Positions 29,656-53,529 of a stretch of DNA of 64,000 nt are shown here, piece by piece; the first letter of the stretch is position 1; every line of letters begins with the position of its first letter. Below the pieces are notes generated by a model. It worked only from the letters and a program-made list of their open reading frames with translations. It was not told the DNA's origin and did not search any database. The stretch is from Bdellovibrionales bacterium (GTDB lineage: Bacteria; Bdellovibrionota; Bdellovibrionia; Bdellovibrionales; JAGQZY01). The stretch covers positions 352,001 through 416,000 of the forward strand of contig CAXRHT010000002.1 in NCBI GenBank assembly GCA_964230645.1. Direction: 5' to 3'. Made by a program: the position numbers and the translations under genes.

Positions 29656-29838
29656 GTCATTCTGAGCGTAGCGAAGAATCTATCACCACTGACTTCACGT
29701 CATCATTCATAGTCCTCGGCAACAGATCCTTCGCTACGCTCAGGACGACATGGTGACATACAGATCCTTCGGCTACACTCAGGACGACATGGGGAAATAC
29801 AGATCCTACGGCTGCGCTCAGGATGACATGGGGAAATA
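29656..29838. repeat. REP-like palindromic element with a tandemly triplicated right arm
   Basis: Left arm gtcattctgagcgtagcgaagaatct (29656-29681); inverted arms agatcc...ctcagga(c/t)gac at 29724, 29762 and 29801 (period 38-39). Confidence 0.85.
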
Positions 29839-40034: not shown

Positions 40035-41126
40035 TTAAGAAAAGACTAAAAACCGGTTCTCAACACCCGAATTAAAGATTGGGATATCTCTGACTTTTTC
40101 TAAGGGAATACTTTGAGTTTTCCAACGAGCCGGCATCAAAAATCCGATGCGGTCTGGTTTAAATTTCTGGTATATAGCTTCAATCACATCGGCCTTGTTG
40201 TTTTGATGGAGTCTCTTTCCCCAGGGAGGATTGACGACCACCACTCGCTTAAGCTTTTCTCTTGGAACTTCTTGTGAATTAAAAAGATCTTGTTTTTCAA
40301 GCTGAACATTAGAAAACCTTTCTAAATTCCCTTGAGCTAGTTTTAGGGCTTTTTCGTGAAAATCAAAACCCATCACTTTTTCTATAGAAAACTGTGAATC
40401 AGGTATAAGCAACTTTTCTTGTTCCTCAAAAGATTTGAAAATTGGAAAGCTTTCGACCCTAAATGATCTCGTCTGAGGAATTTCGAGATTAAGGGCTTCG
40501 GTGAGAAAAGTGCCAGCTCCACACATGGGATCAATAAGTTCAATGGGTTCATTCAAGCCTTGAAAAAGTATTTGAAGTAGCCCTGAAGCCAAGCTCGGCC
40601 TTAATGAGGCCACCGACCCCTTCTCTTGACGCTCAAAACCCGCCTCTCCTGTGGTGTCGATACTGATTGTACACTGATCGCGAATAATACGAATAAACAG
40701 CGCTGGACTTTGCTTTTCAATTTTAATTTTATGGGGTTTGAGCACTCTTTGCAGAACTCGTGTGGCTTGTTTTGAATGAGAAAGTTTAGAGGATTTGGAC
40801 TGAAATTTAAAATCCAAACTTGAGTTTTTGGAGAAATAGGAAGCCCAGTCGATTTCCTTGAGACCTTTTTCAAATTCTTTTTCGTTAGGAGCGGAAAACA
40901 GTTTTTCTCGCAATAAAATTCTTGTGGCCGTTTTCATATTTTTATTGAGGTAATTGGCCATCTCTAGAGGGGCTTTGAATTCAACCCCGCCCTTTAGAAG
41001 GTTCACATCGGGATAGTCAGCAAGATTAAAAAAATCTGCAGCCTGGGCCCACTTTTTACAAAGTTCCAAGTGGGCCGCAGACTCCAGGCCAGGGTTAGTT
41101 GTCAGAAAGAAGAGCCTTTCAATCAT
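40035..41126 (-). CDS. THUMP-domain RNA methyltransferase (RlmL/UPF0020-like)
   Basis: PGLE, SIDTTG, DPMCGAGT, NPPWG. Confidence 0.85.
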   Translation of the reverse strand: MIERLFFLTTNPGLESAAHLELCKKWAQAADFFNLADYPDVNLLKGGVEFKAPLEMANYLNKNMKTATRILLREKLFSAPNEKEFEKGLKEIDWASYFSKNSSLDFKFQSKSSKLSHSKQATRVLQRVLKPHKIKIEKQSPALFIRIIRDQCTISIDTTGEAGFERQEKGSVASLRPSLASGLLQILFQGLNEPIELIDPMCGAGTFLTEALNLEIPQTRSFRVESFPIFKSFEEQEKLLIPDSQFSIEKVMGFDFHEKALKLAQGNLERFSNVQLEKQDLFNSQEVPREKLKRVVVVNPPWGKRLHQNNKADVIEAIYQKFKPDRIGFLMPARWKTQSIPLEKVRDIPIFNSGVENRFLVFS

Positions 41127-44100
41127 GGTTCACATTGATTAAAGGATCGCCCTGGGTTTGTACTTTCATAAGGCCACTCTCGCACATCTTGTCCCAACTC
41201 GTCGGCGAAAGTATAAAGTCCTGGGAAGGTCGGTAAAACCTCAAAGTAGGTTCGACTCAATTCATCCAGTGGCCAGTTGATGCCATTTTCTTGATTAATT
41301 ACCTCAAATTCAGGCACACGATTTTCTTCGTAAGAGCCTTGCAGGTCGAGGCTAGCAGCATCAGAGATCACACGTGATCCAACCGTTTGCCACCAATCAT
41401 TATTATCGATATAGCCCACTTGTCTGGCTCCAATCATAGAAGTAAAGACTTGGAAGTCTCTAAACCCACGAAGCTGTAAGAGCCATGGGTGATTGTGAAG
41501 GTCGGCTGTATCGAGCATATCACCTTCGGTAAAATGCTGTGTAAAGTAATAGTATTTTTCTTTGACTGGAAGACAACGGTCTTCAATCTGTCCGGTACAA
41601 ATCATTACACCGGTTTTAAGAATATCTTCGTTGTCATCAAAACCACGTCCGTCCGCGAGCATATCACGACGACTCTCATTTCTATGAAGTCTTTCTAAAT
41701 CATCGATTTCTTCGGCTAAGACGTTACGAATATCTTGATAAAAACTTGGATGAAAACGAGCCACCAAACAGCGCTCATAGCGTCCCAGCTCAATATCAAA
41801 AGTAGCCTGCTGACTCACGAGGAAAGTTCCCGCAGAAACACTGGTTCCTTGGGTACGTCCGGCACTCTCGTCCCGCCTTGCAGAGCGAGTCAGAGAAAAG
41901 GATCCAACTAATGTTTTAATGAGTCCTCCGACAAAAGGAATTTTAGCCACTTCATCAACGATAACATTAGCGAAATCAGAAGGTTTAAAAGCCGCAGAAG
42001 TACTTACCTGCACTCCATGGGAGCTTGATAAATTAAAGTTAGCAGAAAGGTTTATGTTTAAAGATTTACCACCTCTATAGACGTAACGTCCTGTCGTTTC
42101 ATATGCACGCACCTTTCTTTCAAAAACGATAGGAGAGTAACGAAATTCTACCGGTGTTCCGTCTTCGTTTGCTGGCTCTAAGCGCTTCACACTGTCAGAG
42201 AATCGACGTCTAGGATAACCATAAACATTGGCGACATACTCATGACACTTCGACTCGACAATAGCGTGGGCCTTGGCGTATTTGATCTTCTTTAACTCTG
42301 CCATGGTAAAATCACCAGGAATACTGGCACTCATACCAATGGTGGAGTTTCGAAGGTTCATATTTTCAAGAACACTCTCTGGTACATCTAAGAATTCTTC
42401 AGTGAACATATTGGCTGTTAAAGCAAAACACATTCTATGCATTAAGCGTCTTGAAACCTCAGGGTCCACATGAGCCGCATTTCTCCAACCGTGACGGGCG
42501 ATATTGACGATATCCTCTTCGGTCACCTCTCCTGAAACGGCATTGTAACTCTCAGGTAGGTCCATAAGTCTATAGACGTCGAGCTCCCTCATAAAACGTT
42601 CCTGTTGATAAGTGGCTTCACCAATATCAAGGGAGGGAAGAAAGGGAGGCAGAGTACGATTATTAAGTTGTGAGAACAGAGTGTTTTTCTGCAAAATATC
42701 AGGCCCAGAAGTAATATCTGTTAGACACTCATCGAGTCTTTCAAGAGGTCTCGTTTGACCACAATCTTGTTCGTTAACAACATCATCTTCATTGTCATAA
42801 TTGATGGCTTTGAGTCTTGATGCAGGATTATCGTTAAGAAGGGTATATTTGAGACCATAGGTTCTCACAAAGTTAACCACTTGCGAACCGAGCTCCATTT
42901 TTCTAGTCTTCTTCTCGTCAATGGTTTCCTTGTCTTCGATCAACTGATCCACAGTTAGATCGTGGTAAGCTCTTAAATAACCATAGTACTTGTTATTCTC
43001 GTAGTTAGCGTTAACAGACTCACCCGAATCGTAGATACCATCCTGAAGGAGGTTCAAATCACCATCTTCAGAAAGATTAAGGGTAGAATCCACATCTTCT
43101 GGTGGCACTCCTTGTTCAATCATACGAGGGGCCTCACAGAAGGCCGTACGGCAATACTGTTCGTTAAGAATATCTGTGGGTCTTAGCGAAGATCCATTGG
43201 TGTTATAGACAAAAGTTAGAGGGCCCACAAAAGTTCTGGCTGGTAGACCTGACTTACCGTCATCGGGATTAATACTTGGGTTGTGTTCCCCATCGTTTGT
43301 GATGAGGTCGAAGTCAAAACTTGGAGTCAGTGGACTTTCGGTGAAATCCGAAAACTTGAGTTCATCCAAATCTCTAGCAAAGCTGTCGTTTCCGGCATCA
43401 CGAGCCTGTCGCACGCGATGTTCAATAATGGATTGAGCCGCATTAACACCATCAGAAGTATCTGTGAAAAAGAGCTGTTGTAATGGATCGTCATCGAACG
43501 AATCCAGATATTCTGGATCAAGCTGATCACTGGCACTCTCAAGAGCATCCACATTAGCTTGGTTCAGATTTAACAGAATCCTATTAATAAGCGATCTTTT
43601 ATCGTTTCTAAAGCGAGTCATGTTACTCAGACCACTGCTTGGGTCATTAACTAGGGCACGATACTGATCAAGGCGGGCCAAACGCTCTTCAATCGCTTGA
43701 CGTCTTTCTTCCCACTCACTCGAACCTCTTTCAAACTGGTCGAGTCCAAGGGCTGAGTAGATTTCATTTTGTGCACTCTCAATGGAACCGGCTAATTCGG
43801 CAAGCTCCGCTCGTGCTTCACGGCGCTCACGTTCATTATTGTATTGATCCATAAGCTCGCTTACGCGCTGGTGTCTGGCTTCCAGAGTTTCAAGTTCCTC
43901 TTGCATGGTGAAAAGCTCTTCGTATCTGGCATCAATGTCCTGCCCTTCGAACAGCTCATTGAGTGTTTGATCCACAAGAGTGGCCAAACGAAGCTTATGT
44001 TCGTCCACCGTTTGTAGTTGGATAAAAAATTGATTTCTAATTCTCATTAGTCGAAGATCGTCCACCTCAAACTCAATCGGTGTAATAATCATTCCACCAA

Positions 44101-46429
44101 GCACCCTTACGAGTTTAGTTTGAACAGAGATATACTCTTTTCTTGATTCTTTGAGGTCTTCTTCATTAAGCAGACGGTGATCCACATCTTGCTCAGAGCT
44201 TCCCCCGTTAGGAGCATAAGCCATTCGCGGATTGGCGGATTGACCCGGCTCAAGAGGACCGTACTGACGATCATAGAGGTCGTAGGCGCGGTCAGCCTCT
44301 GGGTTGAGTTCGGCAGCTAAAGTTTCCTCATCGCCCTCCCCTTCAGCCAACTGATAGGGAATCTCTAGGTCTTCATCATAAATCCTAACACCTTTAGCGG
44401 CGGGATCCAGGTAGTCCTTCTGTAAGGCCACCTTCATAAGGTAAACTCCGTCACGTAGCTTGTAGGTTCCGAGACGTCCAAATACGATAGAGTTGTATTT
44501 CAAGACATAAGGGTAAGCTTTCAGAAGTACGGCTTTTTTCACTTTCAAATTGAGATACTTATCAATGGCGTAGCGAAAACCCATAGTTTCATATTTAAAA
44601 TCGGCAATAAACAGTTTTGAAACAGGAGCGGTCTCTCTTTGCTCTTCAATCTCACGAGCATAACCGTCAGGCATTTCATTTTCATCCCAACCAAAGGTAA
44701 ACTTTTCATCCCAAGGATTTAAATAGTAAGTAAATTCTTGTTCATATTGGTTAATCGTCTCATCCCACTGACTGATGTTATTAGCAGGATTAGAGGCGGC
44801 ATTGTTTTTAGTTCCCACAAAGCGTATGTTTGCGGTTTTTTCCTGCAGGACCTCTTTTCGATAGTATTTATGAGAAAGGAAACCAAACCAGGTTAAACAA
44901 CCGTCTTCATTGGTTTGTCGACGCATCTTGTGCACACGTCCTTTATCCTCAGTCTCGATATCAAACTGTAAACCAGGACCCACTCTTGAACCGTAAAGTC
45001 CGTGCTCCACACAGGTTTCAACGGAGTATTGTAGAGTTCTGTCCGTGGCCGTTTCTCCAGGCATAATTCTAATAAAACGCATGGTGAGTGGTCCAAAATA
45101 GAAACGATCAATCTCACGCACGGTTTGTAGGTCATCGATGATTCCATCAACAGAATTGACGTACTCATCGTAGCGCACCTCATCGAGAGGGTTAAAGTTT
45201 TCATCAAAAGAGAAAGTCGCAGTCTGTCGACGCACCCACTGGTCGTATTGTCCAAGGTCCAAAACGGCAGTGTAAGGTTTAACGTTCCTCATTCCACGGT
45301 CAACAGGAACCACTTTTAATAACAGCTCCACTCGACCAAATTCTGTTCTATTTCTTAAGACAAGTGGAACACTTGTTACTAAGCGTCCGTCGTCGTTCAT
45401 TCTCCAAATAAAAGACGCACTTCGCCCGACCATTTCTGTAACATTACTACTAAGAAGATGCCTTTCATTATTATCAGCCGCTCCTCTTGCAATCAAATTC
45501 ATATAGACTTTAAAGCGACCGCTGTTTAATTCAGTACGGTCTCGGTTTCCACCTGAATCGTAATTCCAGACCACTGGACGTGCGTTCATATTAACGTTTA
45601 TATGAAGTCCGGCGCGGTCACTAAGGAGAGTTTCTTCAATTTCATTGCGTCTTTGATTCTCTTCCTCGTCAAGAAGCTCTCGGCTCTGACGATTAAATTC
45701 GGCCACATTGGCTCTCGTTCTCTCAACAGGTTCAATTTGAATCGAGTCAAAGCGAAGCTCCGCTGTGGCATCAAAAAGATCACCTTTCAGGGCATCTACC
45801 ACTTGGTCACCGATGACCCATGTTCCTGACTGCCAATCACTACGATCGTAATCGGTGAGGTCAAAAAATCCACTGGATAAACTTTGAGTACGATGCATGT
45901 CCCAAGGGTTGAAACCAATTCGTTTGACTATTTTTCCAAGTTGTCCAGAAAGAGATTCAATTTCAAAATGTAAGGCCACGTTCACAGAGGGAGCAAAGAA
46001 ATCAAATTCTGGAACCGACTGGCTCCATCTTAAACAGTTTCCACTGTTAACTGTGATTGGATTTGAGATTTCCGTGCTATTTTCACTGCGTTTCCAGATA
46101 ATATTGTCACCAAGCTCGGATTTGATATGGAAGCGTTCATTACGAATGGTTCCCTGGGAAGCTCGATCTCTTATGTTACACAATCTAAAATAAAGTTGAA
46201 TGGCATTAGACGTACGCAGAACACCACGGTCTTGATCGGAGAACTTTATGTCCTCCAATTCAATATTCCCTACTTCGAAGAGCGCACGATTGTTAAAGGC
46301 TATGAGATTTCCATCTGTGGAATACTCGGAAAGCCCTTGCTCTTGCGATTTGCTCTCCCGGTCGGCATTAACACAGCCAACGAGGGTGCAAAGGGTTAAA
46401 ATTGTTACCAGCGACTTAAATAAAGTCAT
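41123..46429 (-). CDS. 1768-aa acidic lipoprotein of unknown function
   Basis: LVGC lipobox; uninterrupted ORF overlapping both neighbours. Confidence 0.8.
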   Translation of the reverse strand: MTLFKSLVTILTLCTLVGCVNADRESKSQEQGLSEYSTDGNLIAFNNRALFEVGNIELEDIKFSDQDRGVLRTSNAIQLYFRLCNIRDRASQGTIRNERFHIKSELGDNIIWKRSENSTEISNPITVNSGNCLRWSQSVPEFDFFAPSVNVALHFEIESLSGQLGKIVKRIGFNPWDMHRTQSLSSGFFDLTDYDRSDWQSGTWVIGDQVVDALKGDLFDATAELRFDSIQIEPVERTRANVAEFNRQSRELLDEEENQRRNEIEETLLSDRAGLHINVNMNARPVVWNYDSGGNRDRTELNSGRFKVYMNLIARGAADNNERHLLSSNVTEMVGRSASFIWRMNDDGRLVTSVPLVLRNRTEFGRVELLLKVVPVDRGMRNVKPYTAVLDLGQYDQWVRRQTATFSFDENFNPLDEVRYDEYVNSVDGIIDDLQTVREIDRFYFGPLTMRFIRIMPGETATDRTLQYSVETCVEHGLYGSRVGPGLQFDIETEDKGRVHKMRRQTNEDGCLTWFGFLSHKYYRKEVLQEKTANIRFVGTKNNAASNPANNISQWDETINQYEQEFTYYLNPWDEKFTFGWDENEMPDGYAREIEEQRETAPVSKLFIADFKYETMGFRYAIDKYLNLKVKKAVLLKAYPYVLKYNSIVFGRLGTYKLRDGVYLMKVALQKDYLDPAAKGVRIYDEDLEIPYQLAEGEGDEETLAAELNPEADRAYDLYDRQYGPLEPGQSANPRMAYAPNGGSSEQDVDHRLLNEEDLKESRKEYISVQTKLVRVLGGMIITPIEFEVDDLRLMRIRNQFFIQLQTVDEHKLRLATLVDQTLNELFEGQDIDARYEELFTMQEELETLEARHQRVSELMDQYNNERERREARAELAELAGSIESAQNEIYSALGLDQFERGSSEWEERRQAIEERLARLDQYRALVNDPSSGLSNMTRFRNDKRSLINRILLNLNQANVDALESASDQLDPEYLDSFDDDPLQQLFFTDTSDGVNAAQSIIEHRVRQARDAGNDSFARDLDELKFSDFTESPLTPSFDFDLITNDGEHNPSINPDDGKSGLPARTFVGPLTFVYNTNGSSLRPTDILNEQYCRTAFCEAPRMIEQGVPPEDVDSTLNLSEDGDLNLLQDGIYDSGESVNANYENNKYYGYLRAYHDLTVDQLIEDKETIDEKKTRKMELGSQVVNFVRTYGLKYTLLNDNPASRLKAINYDNEDDVVNEQDCGQTRPLERLDECLTDITSGPDILQKNTLFSQLNNRTLPPFLPSLDIGEATYQQERFMRELDVYRLMDLPESYNAVSGEVTEEDIVNIARHGWRNAAHVDPEVSRRLMHRMCFALTANMFTEEFLDVPESVLENMNLRNSTIGMSASIPGDFTMAELKKIKYAKAHAIVESKCHEYVANVYGYPRRRFSDSVKRLEPANEDGTPVEFRYSPIVFERKVRAYETTGRYVYRGGKSLNINLSANFNLSSSHGVQVSTSAAFKPSDFANVIVDEVAKIPFVGGLIKTLVGSFSLTRSARRDESAGRTQGTSVSAGTFLVSQQATFDIELGRYERCLVARFHPSFYQDIRNVLAEEIDDLERLHRNESRRDMLADGRGFDDNEDILKTGVMICTGQIEDRCLPVKEKYYYFTQHFTEGDMLDTADLHNHPWLLQLRGFRDFQVFTSMIGARQVGYIDNNDWWQTVGSRVISDAASLDLQGSYEENRVPEFEVINQENGINWPLDELSRTYFEVLPTFPGLYTFADELGQDVREWPYESTNPGRSFNQCEP

Positions 46430-47738: not shown

Positions 47739-48269
47739 GTTTCCCCTGACAAAAACATAGTAAGTTAAACAAATTAATATTTCACTTGTATAAGTTACAA
47801 TAACTGTACCTTAACAATTCACTCCTAAACCCTTAAGAACACTTGTTCCTAGGTGTCTAAACTTTTGACACCCGCCTTTTTACGTCACTTTTGTTGCAAA
47901 ATTTCCGGAAGAAATTACAAAGCTTTTGAAAAAAATTCTTTATCAACTGTTTGACGGAATAGAGAAAAGTGCCGCGTTACTGGACATTTATAAAGGTATT
48001 GAAGCTTTTATAGGTTTTAAAAAAAGCAAATAGGGCCTCTGTTTTATAAGCTTAATGTTTAGATTGCTTCACAATTTTCAGACTTAACTGGCTTTGAAAA
48101 TCAGATCTAAAACTAAAGAAATTTTAGCTAACTTTATTCTTCTTCATTATTTTGTATCTATGAGAATCACTAGTAGAAGAGATGATTAAACAAAAAAATA
48201 TAAAAATTAAAGCAAACAAAGTAATTCAAATAAAGCTCTCTTCCTTTTGAGGCATCATTCAAACCACGA

Positions 48270-48403
48270 TCCCCATGTCTCCATTTATAATAATTCTCTA
48301 AAGGGCTCTGGTGAGCGTAACGCGTTTTCGCCCGAAGGGCGAAACACCAGCAAGGCAAGGATGCCGGCCCTGAAGAGATTTATTATAAATGGAGGCATGG
48401 GGA
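48270..48403. repeat. long palindromic element A with branched core
   Basis: 37-nt inverted arms (33/37 matched) at 48270-48306 and 48367-48403; core homologous to about 52098-52158. Confidence 0.85.
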
Positions 48404-48506
48404 GCCGAGGACTTCGATCGAGCTTCGACAGGTCCTTCGGCTTCGCCTCAGGACGACAATGCAGGTTCGCCTCAGGACGACAATGCAGGTTCGCCTCAGG
48501 ACGACA
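48404..48506. repeat. REP-like remnant plus 24-bp tandem repeat
   Basis: Hairpin gccgaggac/gtccttcggc, then ttcgcctcaggacgacaatgcagg at 48442, 48466 and (partial) 48490. Confidence 0.85.
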
Positions 48507-49885: not shown

Positions 49886-49919
49886 AAGGCCAAACTCTAA
49901 GAAGGGTTTGGCTTTTTTT
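49886..49919. terminator. terminator between convergent genes
   Basis: aaggccaaactc/gggtttggcttt followed by a T run. Confidence 0.75.
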
Positions 49920-50715
49920 ATTTGCTTCCTAAAAAGCGAAGGAGCCTTTGGGTTTTATCGTTGACTTTTTTGTGCTCCATCAACTCTTTTGAATAAGGCC
50001 CCGAATTGGGAAGAAATTTTCTAGGATCCGAGGCGTAAAACCTCAGCTGAGGATAAGGATTCTCACCAGAAAGTTTGGTAATTTCCTTAGCCCACTTTTT
50101 AAGACCTATAGGCCCTTCAAACATGGGATCAAGAACAAGGATTTTCTTTCCGGTAAATACAAAGGTCGCCACATGAAATTCCCACACAACCGGAGGAGCT
50201 ACTAATGTTCCAATGGCCCAAACCTTACCGATTCGCTCCTGTGGCACACCCATTTTCAAAAGATAGTAATGGCTTAAAAGCGCTCGGTAGAAACAGTAAC
50301 CTATTTCTAGTTTTTTAGGGTCTCGCTTTTCACTATCACTCAGAAACTGATAGCCCGCGGCCTTTTTAAAAGCTTTTTTAAGTTTTTCAGTAGGAATGAC
50401 AGGCTTATTTTTTTGACTGTTGAGATTCTCAAGCTCACTGAACATTTCTTTATTCGCACTTCTTGCTTGCTCGACTAAAAAAAGATTCCTTTTTTTATAT
50501 TCTCGCCTTGTAAACTTCTTCTTTTCCAATTGTTCAAACCAAGAGGCTTTCTCTAAATTGTACTCAGCCAAAAGGTCTTTTTTTAAATTAAGGCTATGCT
50601 GATCATTTTCAGGTTCTTGGTTGAGCTCTTTTAAAACGGAAACACGAGAACTGTCCTGTTTATGGGCACAAGAGAGCATCAAAATTGCAATCAATAGAAG
50701 TCTAGGCCATTTCAA
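49918..50715 (-). CDS. protein-glutaminase-like (Cys-His-Asp) lipoprotein
   Basis: GYCFYRA...WEFHVA...VLDP; TTG start with GAGGA RBS gives MKWPRLLLIAILMLSC (track ORF starts at 50778). Confidence 0.72.
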   Translation of the reverse strand: MKWPRLLLIAILMLSCAHKQDSSRVSVLKELNQEPENDQHSLNLKKDLLAEYNLEKASWFEQLEKKKFTRREYKKRNLFLVEQARSANKEMFSELENLNSQKNKPVIPTEKLKKAFKKAAGYQFLSDSEKRDPKKLEIGYCFYRALLSHYYLLKMGVPQERIGKVWAIGTLVAPPVVWEFHVATFVFTGKKILVLDPMFEGPIGLKKWAKEITKLSGENPYPQLRFYASDPRKFLPNSGPYSKELMEHKKVNDKTQRLLRFLGSK

Positions 50716-51835
50716 GGAGATAATCCTCAAGCGTTTTACTGGCGATACCATTAGAAAAAACACTAGTAAGCTCTGCAATAGCCAAAGCCTCTCTTAAATA
50801 AGGTTCAGTCACAAGCCCTACATTTTTAAGAAGGTCTAAAGAGACGGCATCATGCTCTCCCATATCGTTAATCTGCATATGTCGATTCACTAATTTGGCT
50901 GAGTCTTTCAAGCCAATGTCACTTAAAAGCTCACCGAGTGGGTCTTTGCCTGAGAAGTTACTGCGTTCAAAAAAATCAATCAAAAGAGCAAAGGCTAAAA
51001 AGTTTCGAGAGGCACTAAATTTTAGCAAATCCATAATGACTCGAGCGTTGAGGCAGACCTCCACTTTTTCCGCATCAAAGCCGGCCGCTTCAACCGCTTT
51101 AGCCATAATAATGTCATGGCCTTTCTCTTCCTTAATGAATTTCTCAACCTCTTCTTTTGAAGACTGAGCGATTTCAAGAGCGGGCTCCACAGCCTCGATA
51201 CATCGCGAGGTCACATAGTGATTCTGCCTAATAAGGCGAGCGGCCATATCTTGTTGTTGATCATCAGGAAGCTCTCTAACTGTTGTGTAAACTTGCGAAA
51301 CACCCCCACGCTCTTTGACCTCGATCATATGAAACTTTCTTACGGCCGTAAGAACACTCTCAGGACAGTACATCTCGTCCACCGTAGCGAATTTCAAAAT
51401 AGAATCATGGTCCCAGGGAGAGGTGCGAGATTTTAAGGTCATCATGATCTCTTGCTCATCTTCTTTAGAAGCAAAACCTTGCTGCCCCTCTTCTTTTGAT
51501 TGGCAAAGATGATCCACTAAAGTTTTGATCTTTCCATCAACAAAGTTATTGTCTTTAAGCTTATGTTCATCACCATATTTGATGAGAGGAAGAATATAAA
51601 ATATAGGATAACGATCCACCTGCTTAATAAACTGACTAAATATCAGCGCTTCTTCCGGTTTGATAATCTGTTGCTGAATATTATTGTAAATACCCTGCAA
51701 CTGACTGGCCATCGCGGGATCAAGCTTAAGATTCAACTCAATCCAAGGGGTTTTCAAATGAACATCCCCACCACTTGTTTTCATTTCCAATTCTTCGTAA
51801 GGCCAATACTTATAATCCATGAAAATTCCTTTCAA
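50702..51835 (-). CDS. heme-oxygenase-like/ferritin-like diiron protein
   Basis: NHYVT, FIKEEKGHD, DFFE, H...GEH pattern in a helical C-domain; start may be 51820. Confidence 0.6.
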   Translation of the reverse strand: MKGIFMDYKYWPYEELEMKTSGGDVHLKTPWIELNLKLDPAMASQLQGIYNNIQQQIIKPEEALIFSQFIKQVDRYPIFYILPLIKYGDEHKLKDNNFVDGKIKTLVDHLCQSKEEGQQGFASKEDEQEIMMTLKSRTSPWDHDSILKFATVDEMYCPESVLTAVRKFHMIEVKERGGVSQVYTTVRELPDDQQQDMAARLIRQNHYVTSRCIEAVEPALEIAQSSKEEVEKFIKEEKGHDIIMAKAVEAAGFDAEKVEVCLNARVIMDLLKFSASRNFLAFALLIDFFERSNFSGKDPLGELLSDIGLKDSAKLVNRHMQINDMGEHDAVSLDLLKNVGLVTEPYLREALAIAELTSVFSNGIASKTLEDYLLEMA

Positions 51836-52048: not shown

Positions 52049-52206
52049 CCCGTGGGTCTAGCGTCTGTTCATTTTTTAAGGACAGACCGAAAGTAGTGGC
52101 TCTGGCAAGCTGGAAGCGTTCACCCGTAGGGTGATGCCAGCAAGGCAGGAGCCGTGCCCTACTTGCGGTCTGTCCTTAAAAAATGAACAGACGCTAGACC
52201 CACGGG
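52049..52206. repeat. long palindromic element B with branched core
   Basis: Perfect 41-bp inverted arms at 52049-52089 and 52166-52206; core shared with element A. Confidence 0.9.
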
Positions 52207-52233
52207 CCCGGCCCCATTTACGAGGAGAGTTTT

Positions 52234-53529
52234 ATGGATGCATTACGCCAGCCCCCAACAACCAGCGGTTACAAAGAAGGCGATGTCTTAGTACTATTTG
52301 GAGAACTGTTCTCCAAAGGCTACGCCAATGGCCTCGTCGATGAAGCTAAAAAGAAGGGCTTAAAAATTGTTTACTCCACCGTGGGCCGGAGGGACTCGGA
52401 GGGAAAACTAAGAGCCCTAACAAAAGAAGAGCTCAGTGAGCAACCCACACCATTGATCAATCGACCTCTTGAGGCGGGCTTTGATATGGAGCCCGATTCC
52501 AAAGGTGTTACCCCTTGCGATCAACTCAAGGGTATTAAAATGAAAGATTGGGACCAAGACCACCTCAACTGGGACTCGATTTTAGAGTCGCAAAAAAACG
52601 GGACCGAAAGATTTCGAAAACACGTCACAGCTTATATGGAAGATCTCAAAGAGCATATTCCCAAAGGGGCCAATGTTTTATTTGCTCATATTATGGCTGG
52701 AGGAGTTCCAAGAGCAAAAATAATTATGCCCGTTATGAACAAAGTTTTTAAAGGTCGAGGCGATCGCTTTATTCCTTCTAAAAGTTTGTTTGATTCTCAG
52801 CTTGGAAAAATGAGTCAGCTCAACTTCAGTGACGTCACAGCCCACACCTTCAAACATCTTGTCGAACTCAGTGCTGAAATTCGAGAGATGGTTGAGTCCG
52901 ATGGTGGTCAGGTCAGCTACACAGCCTACGGTTATCATGGGACAGAAATTCTTATTGATGGAAAGTATCAGTGGCAAACCTATACGCCTTATTTTCAAGG
53001 CTGGGCCAAGATGGAGCTTGAAGAGCATTGTAAAAACTTTTTTGAAAAAGGCATTCGCTGTAGTGTCTACAACTGTCCAGAAATTCTGACTAATTCCTCA
53101 AGCATTTTCCAAGGTGTGGAAGTGTCCCTTTATCCGCTTTTAGGGGCGCTTAAGAAAGAAGGAGCGGATTCAAAAAATTGTCAGAAAGTCCTCGATGATT
53201 GTCGCAAACTTTTAAAAGAAGACCATAGTTTTGATGAAATTATGGAATTCACTAGCCAGTACTGCAAACACGATCTTATCACCTCCCATAGTCATTTCGA
53301 TCAGTGGCCTCAGCACAACTCTCAAGACCAAATGGAGTATATGTTAGACTCTTCTGATCACTTGATTTCTATGCACAAAGACCCAAAAGAGTTAATGACC
53401 TTTCCATTATCCGAAGAGGTTTTTAAGGCCACAGGCGAGCTCATTTTTCACGACTCCTTCGCCCCGCAAAGTCCAGTGCAGTGGCTCAACCACGACGTGG
53501 TCGCAAAAACGATTGCAAAACAGGGATGA
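52234..53529 (+). CDS. FabMG-family enoyl-ACP reductase
   Basis: GDVLVLFGELFSKGYANGLV, PLEAGFD, HIMAGGVPRAK, YGYHGTE, PEILTNSS; GAGGAG RBS. Confidence 0.78.
   Translation: MDALRQPPTTSGYKEGDVLVLFGELFSKGYANGLVDEAKKKGLKIVYSTVGRRDSEGKLRALTKEELSEQPTPLINRPLEAGFDMEPDSKGVTPCDQLKGIKMKDWDQDHLNWDSILESQKNGTERFRKHVTAYMEDLKEHIPKGANVLFAHIMAGGVPRAKIIMPVMNKVFKGRGDRFIPSKSLFDSQLGKMSQLNFSDVTAHTFKHLVELSAEIREMVESDGGQVSYTAYGYHGTEILIDGKYQWQTYTPYFQGWAKMELEEHCKNFFEKGIRCSVYNCPEILTNSSSIFQGVEVSLYPLLGALKKEGADSKNCQKVLDDCRKLLKEDHSFDEIMEFTSQYCKHDLITSHSHFDQWPQHNSQDQMEYMLDSSDHLISMHKDPKELMTFPLSEEVFKATGELIFHDSFAPQSPVQWLNHDVVAKTIAKQG

Follow-up and report, generated by a model that had tools for sequence, protein, structure and literature searches.

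Two long hairpins lie in the window, the whole 64,000-nt stretch of DNA analyzed here, which comes from a genome of 3.78 Mb (G000). Element B, 158 bases long (52049..52206, + strand), consists of a left arm (52049..52096, +) and a right arm (52159..52206, +) of 48 nt each around a conserved core of 61 nt (52098..52158, +). The arms pair at 47 of 48 positions, perfectly over the outer 41, as the sequence-only reading of this DNA had reported; a BLAST search for a second copy of the left arm in the source genome returned none. The core is built from a closing helix (52098-52100/52156-52158, +), a helix P2 (52102-52107/52135-52140, +), and three hairpins: P3 with a GGA loop (52109-52117, +), P4 with a GTA triloop closed by C-G (52120-52134, +), and P5 with an AGGA loop (52144-52153, +). 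A C-rich 3' tag (52207..52215, +) follows immediately outside the right arm. B ends, as first stated, 27 nt before the start at 52234 of its downstream neighbor, the FabMG gene (52234..53529, +; PF22046), which lies outside the element. Upstream of FabMG, the element is absent in 9 of 9 congeners (one locus having under 100 nt upstream). A promoter scan at B gave one 9-of-12 site, which is the chance level.

Element A (48270..48403, +) has a core of 67 nt (48304..48370, +) with the topology of B, and the two cores align just as had been written out from the sequence. Its arms (48270-48306 and 48367-48403) have the length of 37 nt first attributed to them, but they are 89% complementary and not perfectly paired. 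The hairpin carries the two outer tags of the A and C subtypes, one on the 5' side ending in CCACGAT (48258..48270, +) and one on the 3' side with a CGAGG motif (48404..48424, +), the latter a partial complement of the former as read by eye. Next comes a CGTC-like REP palindrome with decaying tandem units (48430..48506, −), found 3' of most A copies. This palindrome, whose likeness to CGTC REPs was judged by eye and which does not match the published SRM pattern, represents a separate, abundant repeat family. CGTC-like REP doublets are plentiful in the source genome (147 and 76 matches to two 11-mers) and occur in the window at 29656-29749 and 48430-48506; the genome yielded no small GIY-YIG gene. 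Against 200 shuffles, the fold z-scores are −14.5 for B and −11.4 for A; the minimum free energy fold of A gives the branched core, and that of B on its own does not. Two predicted ORFs of the window can be mentioned here: a 286-aa ORF between A and B (49918-50778, −) has a weak, below-cut-off Pfam match to Gln_deamidase_2, and a 1768-aa lipoprotein-like ORF (41123-46429, −) has no convincing Pfam family.

B and A belong to a family of about 26 copies in the source genome (25 detected by model R2, described below, and 26 with one decayed A copy), which agrees with the unnamed multi-copy family that had been predicted. Rfam gave no match in the window at the gathering score and, at an E-value of 5, only generic hairpin matches far below threshold for seven loci. 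Using BLAST and nhmmer, three subtypes were distinguished in G000. Subtype B comprises 11 copies with a 61-nt core, 10 of them with arms of 44-49 bp. Subtype A comprises 10 copies, one decayed, with related arms, outer tags, and then a CGTC-like REP. The four copies of subtype C have unique arms within outer tags of the A type. A genome-wide palindrome scan of G000 added one short copy. All G000 copies are intergenic according to our ORF calls. The arms of A and B had been called unrelated; this is true of one against the other, but those of A are common to the other A copies, with drift (63-97% identity over 30 nt). B-type arms are almost unique in the genome, with a mean identity of 32%. Two shared 12-mers (p=0.007 for the maximum) make them probable old relatives rather than copies of targets. 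In several lineages, paralogues have arms that share a common descent. The idea of arms as captured guides or target copies was rejected after searches that gave no second genomic match beyond chance and none in 50,697 phage records.

A second long palindrome, family D, is present in 28 copies in G000 (for example L268:233-316, at C1:363332-363415). It has a different branched core, of 84 nt, and arms that are copy-specific like those of B (38% identity). Most D copies carry the GC-TC...GT-GC junction of B and the same C-rich 3' tag, which was found in 22 of 26 D copies and 9 of 11 B copies, against 1 of 26 and 2 of 11 at the mirror position. By BLAST, family D was found in no other genome among 301 of the order. 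The arms, junction, and tag that B and D share suggest that one machine may read stem, junction, and tag. Three A cores contain an inserted hairpin module of 40 nt, the loci listed being L053 (G000:C1:733254-733760), C1:142846-142967, C3:591727-591848, and C3:486937-487004; a related module interrupts a D core. Such modules could be mobile units nested within the elements.

RNAalifold, applied to a plain MAFFT alignment of 16 B-type copies, returned the two nested three-way junctions proposed from B and A, with 21 pairs, four of them showing double-sided changes, and one broken cell. The compensatory pairing seen between the two elements extends to the family: in 35 long-type copies, 94.2% of cells pair and both sides change in 22 of 32 pairs. 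None of 500 shuffles reaches the observed pairing, a count that is not a probability since these copies are related, and slid controls are also well below. The sequence-only reading had staked itself on further copies, on covariation, and on the lack of a Rfam match, and each of these was found. Its view that the CAA linker and the GNA triloop are kept is correct for A and B but not for the wider family, where both vary and some lineages lack the GNA hairpin P4 or have long loops in its place. Among 155 copies, P4 nevertheless has a triloop in 132, in the form C-AAA-G in 21 and C-GNA-G in 91, the latter in line with the DNA-type loop signature noted at the outset. C-AAA-G is a very stable DNA loop. 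The same stability is described for C-GNA-G (PMC3201870). G-T pairs exceed A-C pairs by 56 to 24, an excess that fits RNA as well as ssDNA. In the arms of 134 copies, 3800 of 3944 pairs are Watson-Crick.

The distribution of the family was followed with two models, R1, whose rows for the P3 and P4 helices are unreliable (one column off), and R2, which holds the corrected structure. R1 matched in at least 25 of 151 genomes of the order, with a patchy spread; its counts are lower bounds, 31 candidates being scored per genome. R2 matched in 10 of 13 genomes of the genus, which contain 0, 0, 0, 1, 2, 2, 5, 23, 25, 26, 40, 44, and 76 copies. Across the phylum, it matched in 12 of 151 genomes, four of these outside the order. 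Closed genomes of another genus, g35 (G055, G066, G069, and G073), hold one or two copies. No family match was obtained in phages or plasmids, nor, with three patterns, in viral contigs, and from metagenomes a pattern scan recovered nothing but copies that match G139 loci exactly, one of which looks like an assembly chimera. The B cores of G000 are 91% identical to those in a genome of another family and 90% identical among themselves.

Loci occupied in one genome are mostly free in another. Among 114 mapped gene ends that lie beside elements in relatives, 102 have no element in G000. The other 12, corresponding to nine distinct elements, are occupied, against about five expected, which is a mild hot-spot effect. 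Gaps between convergent genes are favored (60 of 143 elements versus a 15% background, orthologues being counted twice). Transposons that move as ssDNA show a leading/lagging bias; the replichores show none here, with 13 leading and 12 lagging. Three further loci of the congener G008 were sought in its relative G002: one is present across a contig break, the region of the second is replaced by other DNA, and at the third G002 lacks a 335-nt stretch containing the element, with ends that are not clean. No clean insertion boundary was found, and among sequencing-run contigs none joined an empty site across B or A. The mobility proposed for the family is therefore supported indirectly by copy number (0-76 per genome), mostly unshared loci, and empty orthologous sites, but target duplications are missing: 130 copies show no excess, their distribution being equal to that of a shuffled control. 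In G336, an element next to tRNA-Ser (L183:1355-1700) has the 3' end of the tRNA, in inverted copy, as part of its outer stem, and the outer sequence of a second G336 copy (L301) is similar.

The long stay of resident copies at one locus under strong per-copy constraint had not been foreseen. All 14 G002 loci examined have an orthologous locus in G008. In 15 element pairs from these two congeners, the core is identical at 944 of 989 positions (95.4%). For the same two genomes, identity falls to 1445 of 2913 at four-fold sites (49.6%) and is 83% in coding DNA. Since the cores keep 95% identity while four-fold sites keep 50%, each copy appears to be under purifying selection. Orthologous copies are more similar (95.5%) than paralogous ones (84.0%), so that concerted evolution or gene conversion among copies does not explain the conservation. 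Among unpaired core columns, 12 of 18 are invariant in 11 pairs. The core is conserved more strongly than neighboring genes, and the stem changes yet stays paired. The earlier idea that structure is selected over sequence applies to the arms but not to the core, which is conserved in sequence too. About 20 dispersed copies held at this level while neutral sites were half replaced, without concerted evolution, are hard to reconcile with purely selfish or decaying repeats, and the resident copies are likely now kept by selection.

The arms follow a different course. Comparing G002 with G008, 250 of 390 arm pairs are unchanged, 76 are changed on both sides and still Watson-Crick, 48 are changed on one side, and 16 otherwise. 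The double changes comprise 42 transitions and 34 transversions and are over-dispersed (p=0.003) when the two decayed pairs are excluded and the 13 intact ones kept, and 25 of the 48 one-sided changes fall in two decayed copies. In a sequencing run of a related strain from another study (X5), whose flanks are 96-98% identical, 13 of the 23 visible bases of one orthologous arm differ, nine by transition, a result from one low-depth contig in which the partner arm is not seen and to be set against a neutral rate of 0.17 that is our own estimate; the arm of another copy differs at 2 of 30. On average, the arms change more slowly than four-fold sites, which does not support general hypermutation, and ordinary stem selection predicts the same. 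In G064, five copies lie equidistant behind the stop codon of an HNH gene and one of them is inverted, its core being 89-97% identical to the reverse complement, although with symmetric arms a flip of the center alone would look the same as the whole element being flipped or reinserted. The paired double changes and this in-place flip point to arm-to-arm copying. Template switching is described as homogenizing arms and inverting spacers (PMC8604942), and it can make compensatory changes in one step (PMC8794818). With its double transversions and its in-place inversion, the family is a natural test set for arm-to-arm copying.

From these data, we consider B and A to be non-coding palindromic repeats with a conserved branched core and a stem that is variable yet paired, and we lean, with moderate confidence, to a core read as folded ssDNA by a protein from elsewhere. 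The C-GNA-G triloops and the free orientation of the elements favor folded ssDNA over RNA. The element is likely a signal of this kind that was formerly spread through the genome and is now kept by selection. It would fold when the DNA is single-stranded, at replication forks or during transcription, and its stem would need only length and pairing. From time to time, one arm might be rewritten with the other as template, through polymerase template switching or mismatch repair of the hairpin, and this could also flip the center. New copies would arise in bursts through a structure-specific nicking step, in lineages that have the enzyme, and additional ones by hitch-hiking behind mobile genes. 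Host selection could keep the resident copies for one of two reasons: the core, once bound, may be of use, or a long palindrome may do harm when its core is not intact. What bacterial palindromic repeats do and how they spread has long been asked, and the surprise here is that each resident copy is under strong selection and that, at the same time, the arms show signs of having been copied.

A dedicated trans-acting nuclease, also suggested at the outset, was not supported. Links to HUH/RAYT and GIY-YIG genes are negative, and those to IS1-like transposase and HNH genes hold in one lineage each and are best read as hitch-hiking. The HNH lineage is G064, where an HNH endonuclease gene adjoins the motif in 11 of 18 fetched loci, a share biased by the choice of several loci for their nearness to contig ends. 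One 348-aa HNH gene of this genome is flanked on both sides by inverted tandem copies. Repeats on both sides of a nuclease or transposase gene are the layout described for REP-RAYT and SRM-ssnA (PMC11893778). However, the motif is missing from all 49 other HNH loci, some of which lie in motif-rich genomes and two in G064 itself. Members of the HNH family are encoded in 88 of 151 genomes, frequently as numerous divergent copies (L311-L326 in G064; L327-L375); the family was not found in G000, G002, or G008, but it does occur in the three congeners richest in elements and in one that has no element. Its proteins, which we take to resemble DUF222 proteins, measure 266-348 aa and have the HNH at the C-terminus; their N-terminal part has no Pfam match. 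The best candidate that we have seen for a cognate enzyme is the multi-copy HNH endonuclease of G064, a role that we still regard as doubtful. A scan of 55 of the 94 neighbor genes without a G000 homologue revealed no nuclease and no transposase. A retron-like origin was rejected, no reverse transcriptase being found in G000.

A broader proposal can be advanced only tentatively. Inside-out hairpins of this kind might form a widespread, undescribed class of chromosomal ssDNA signal, whose enzyme would read the stem-junction and the 3' tag, accept different branched cores, and rebuild one arm from the other with bursts of mutation. The host would have captured the system so that every copy is needed, and the HNH nuclease family would be the mover in some lineages at least.

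The reading of the core as folded ssDNA has first to be weighed against one as a structured RNA module of untranslated regions, in which one or two GGA hairpins would be bound by a CsrA/RsmA dimer, or the processing of mRNA would be directed, the stem only isolating the fold. CsrA is encoded in 13 of 13 genomes of the genus, and 126 of 155 copies have GGA in P5, with variants fitting the A(N)GGAX hairpin motif of CsrA/RsmE sites (PMC4005645); the elements, like those sites, present GGA in the short loop of a hairpin, and some do so twice. The excess of G-T pairs on one strand, the enrichment between convergent genes, and the strong per-copy selection are also compatible with RNA. Yet the commonest P5 loop is the short AGGA form, shorter than the high-affinity one, and P3, mostly GTGAC, has loops without GGA as its commonest (67 plus 26 of 155). 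The elements have no fixed orientation with respect to transcription: where the flanking genes are co-directional, the GGA strand is antisense in 43 cases and sense in 23 (these copies not being independent), and at one G064 site the center can be inverted. Moreover, P4 has triloops and not GNRA or UUCG tetraloops, and no conserved promoter or terminator is evident. We therefore judge an RNA module to be unlikely.

Lower still is the probability that we give to a REP/REPIN-type repeat moved by a host RAYT (Y1 HUH) transposase or by an Ssn-type GIY-YIG nuclease. The likeness to REPINs is considerable, as these are intergenic, multi-copy, about 100-160 bp long, and long persistent in a lineage, with a long hairpin and a copy-specific paired stem that the B/A family also has, REPIN spacers being unique yet paired (PMC3337134). 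RAYT-like genes are found in G000 and in five of five motif-rich relatives, and A copies adjoin CGTC-like REPs. However, the conserved, recognized parts of a REPIN are its two terminal REPs and the inside varies (PMC3337134), whereas here the center is conserved and branched, the arms vary (the 32% identity of B arms leaves no two conserved inverted terminal REPs), and the tag is one-sided. No GTAG/CGTC tag is present at the hairpin foot of B or A, where the C-rich 3' tag is found instead. Nor do copies flank a RAYT gene: at 18 Y1 loci, R1 gave no match and R2 one weak match (E=0.009), and the Y1 genes of G000 are flanked by a different repeat. Two of these RAYT-like genes (L011 and L012, at C2:1838174 and 1599098) have inverted GGTACC-type repeats on their sides and constitute a separate REP system. 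As for nucleases, R1 gave no match at seven GIY-YIG loci, the one small GIY-YIG gene of G006 has no motif nearby, and the sole GIY-YIG match in G000 lies in a 635-aa frame, no Ssn gene being found. The CGTC REPs or SRMs associated with Ssn nucleases share with the B/A family a hairpin recognized on ssDNA, as is proposed for B and A, and a short unpaired 3' tail, and also repeats flanking a nuclease gene, a layout met here once, around the HNH gene of G064. They are described as simple hairpins of 20-50 nt with conserved stems (PMC3733652, PMC11893778); B and A do not match the degenerate SRM pattern, and no small GIY-YIG gene flanked by the repeat was found. The B/A family is real and undescribed, belongs among palindromic repeats, and is an inside-out REPIN-like element; no description of it or of its architecture was found in a search of mostly open-access main texts.

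That the element is a MITE descended from an IS1-like DDE insertion sequence, namely from its right end, and moved by the transposase of that IS, is largely refuted and very improbable, despite what is seen in genus g11. There, the motif lies between the stop codon of the transposase gene and the right terminal repeat of a 1177-bp IS, 12 of 13 checked fetched copies being behind this 294-aa IS1-like transposase, and six of these 12 with a 9-bp duplication. The transposase family occurs in 123 of 301 genomes but was not found in G000, and 0 of 29 other transposase loci have the motif. Free elements lack the ends of the g11 IS as well as any shared terminal repeats, and they have no duplication excess. 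Arms are conserved among copies in the RPEs of Rickettsia and the YPAL/RU-2 elements of Yersinia, and not in the B/A family, which also has no terminal repeat family or duplication. Those elements are otherwise comparable, being palindromic, dispersed, and of 105-168 bp (PMC3184786). In the same source, bcr1 of the Bacillus cereus group, a non-autonomous repeat of about 155 bp at non-conserved positions, is reported to have a branched fold with compensatory changes (PMC3184786), and the B/A family resembles it in size and in this compensated branching. Direct repeats of 5 bp and a description as an RNA structure that is transcribed set bcr1 apart from the B/A family, which shows no duplications and has copy-specific arms and DNA-type loops. 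The view of the copies as inert relics of an old expansion, symmetrical only through replication errors, could draw on template switching, which needs no selection (PMC8604942), and on the decay of some copies, but it is contradicted by the orthologue comparison and has very little probability, because unpaired core bases, which have no partner to copy from, differ between orthologues at 9 of 198 cells against 50% of four-fold sites.

The IS1-like IS of genus g11 deserves some further description. In G083 and G113 (L066, L086-L096), it is 1177 bp long, with 12-bp terminal repeats and 9-bp duplications, and its transposase family does not reach the NCBIfam IS1 cut-off. Behind other IS1-like transposases (L110, L130, and L132) lie further structured palindromes, whose hairpins have GGA loops and which match neither R1 nor R2; in this IS family, the region 3' of the gene may serve as a site for cargo. 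Copies of the IS are unusually divergent, with 84-98% DNA identity and mostly synonymous differences. A fragment 90% identical to the g11 transposase is present in the genome of another genus (G002:C58:2864-3250), which suggests a possible recent horizontal transfer of the g11 IS.
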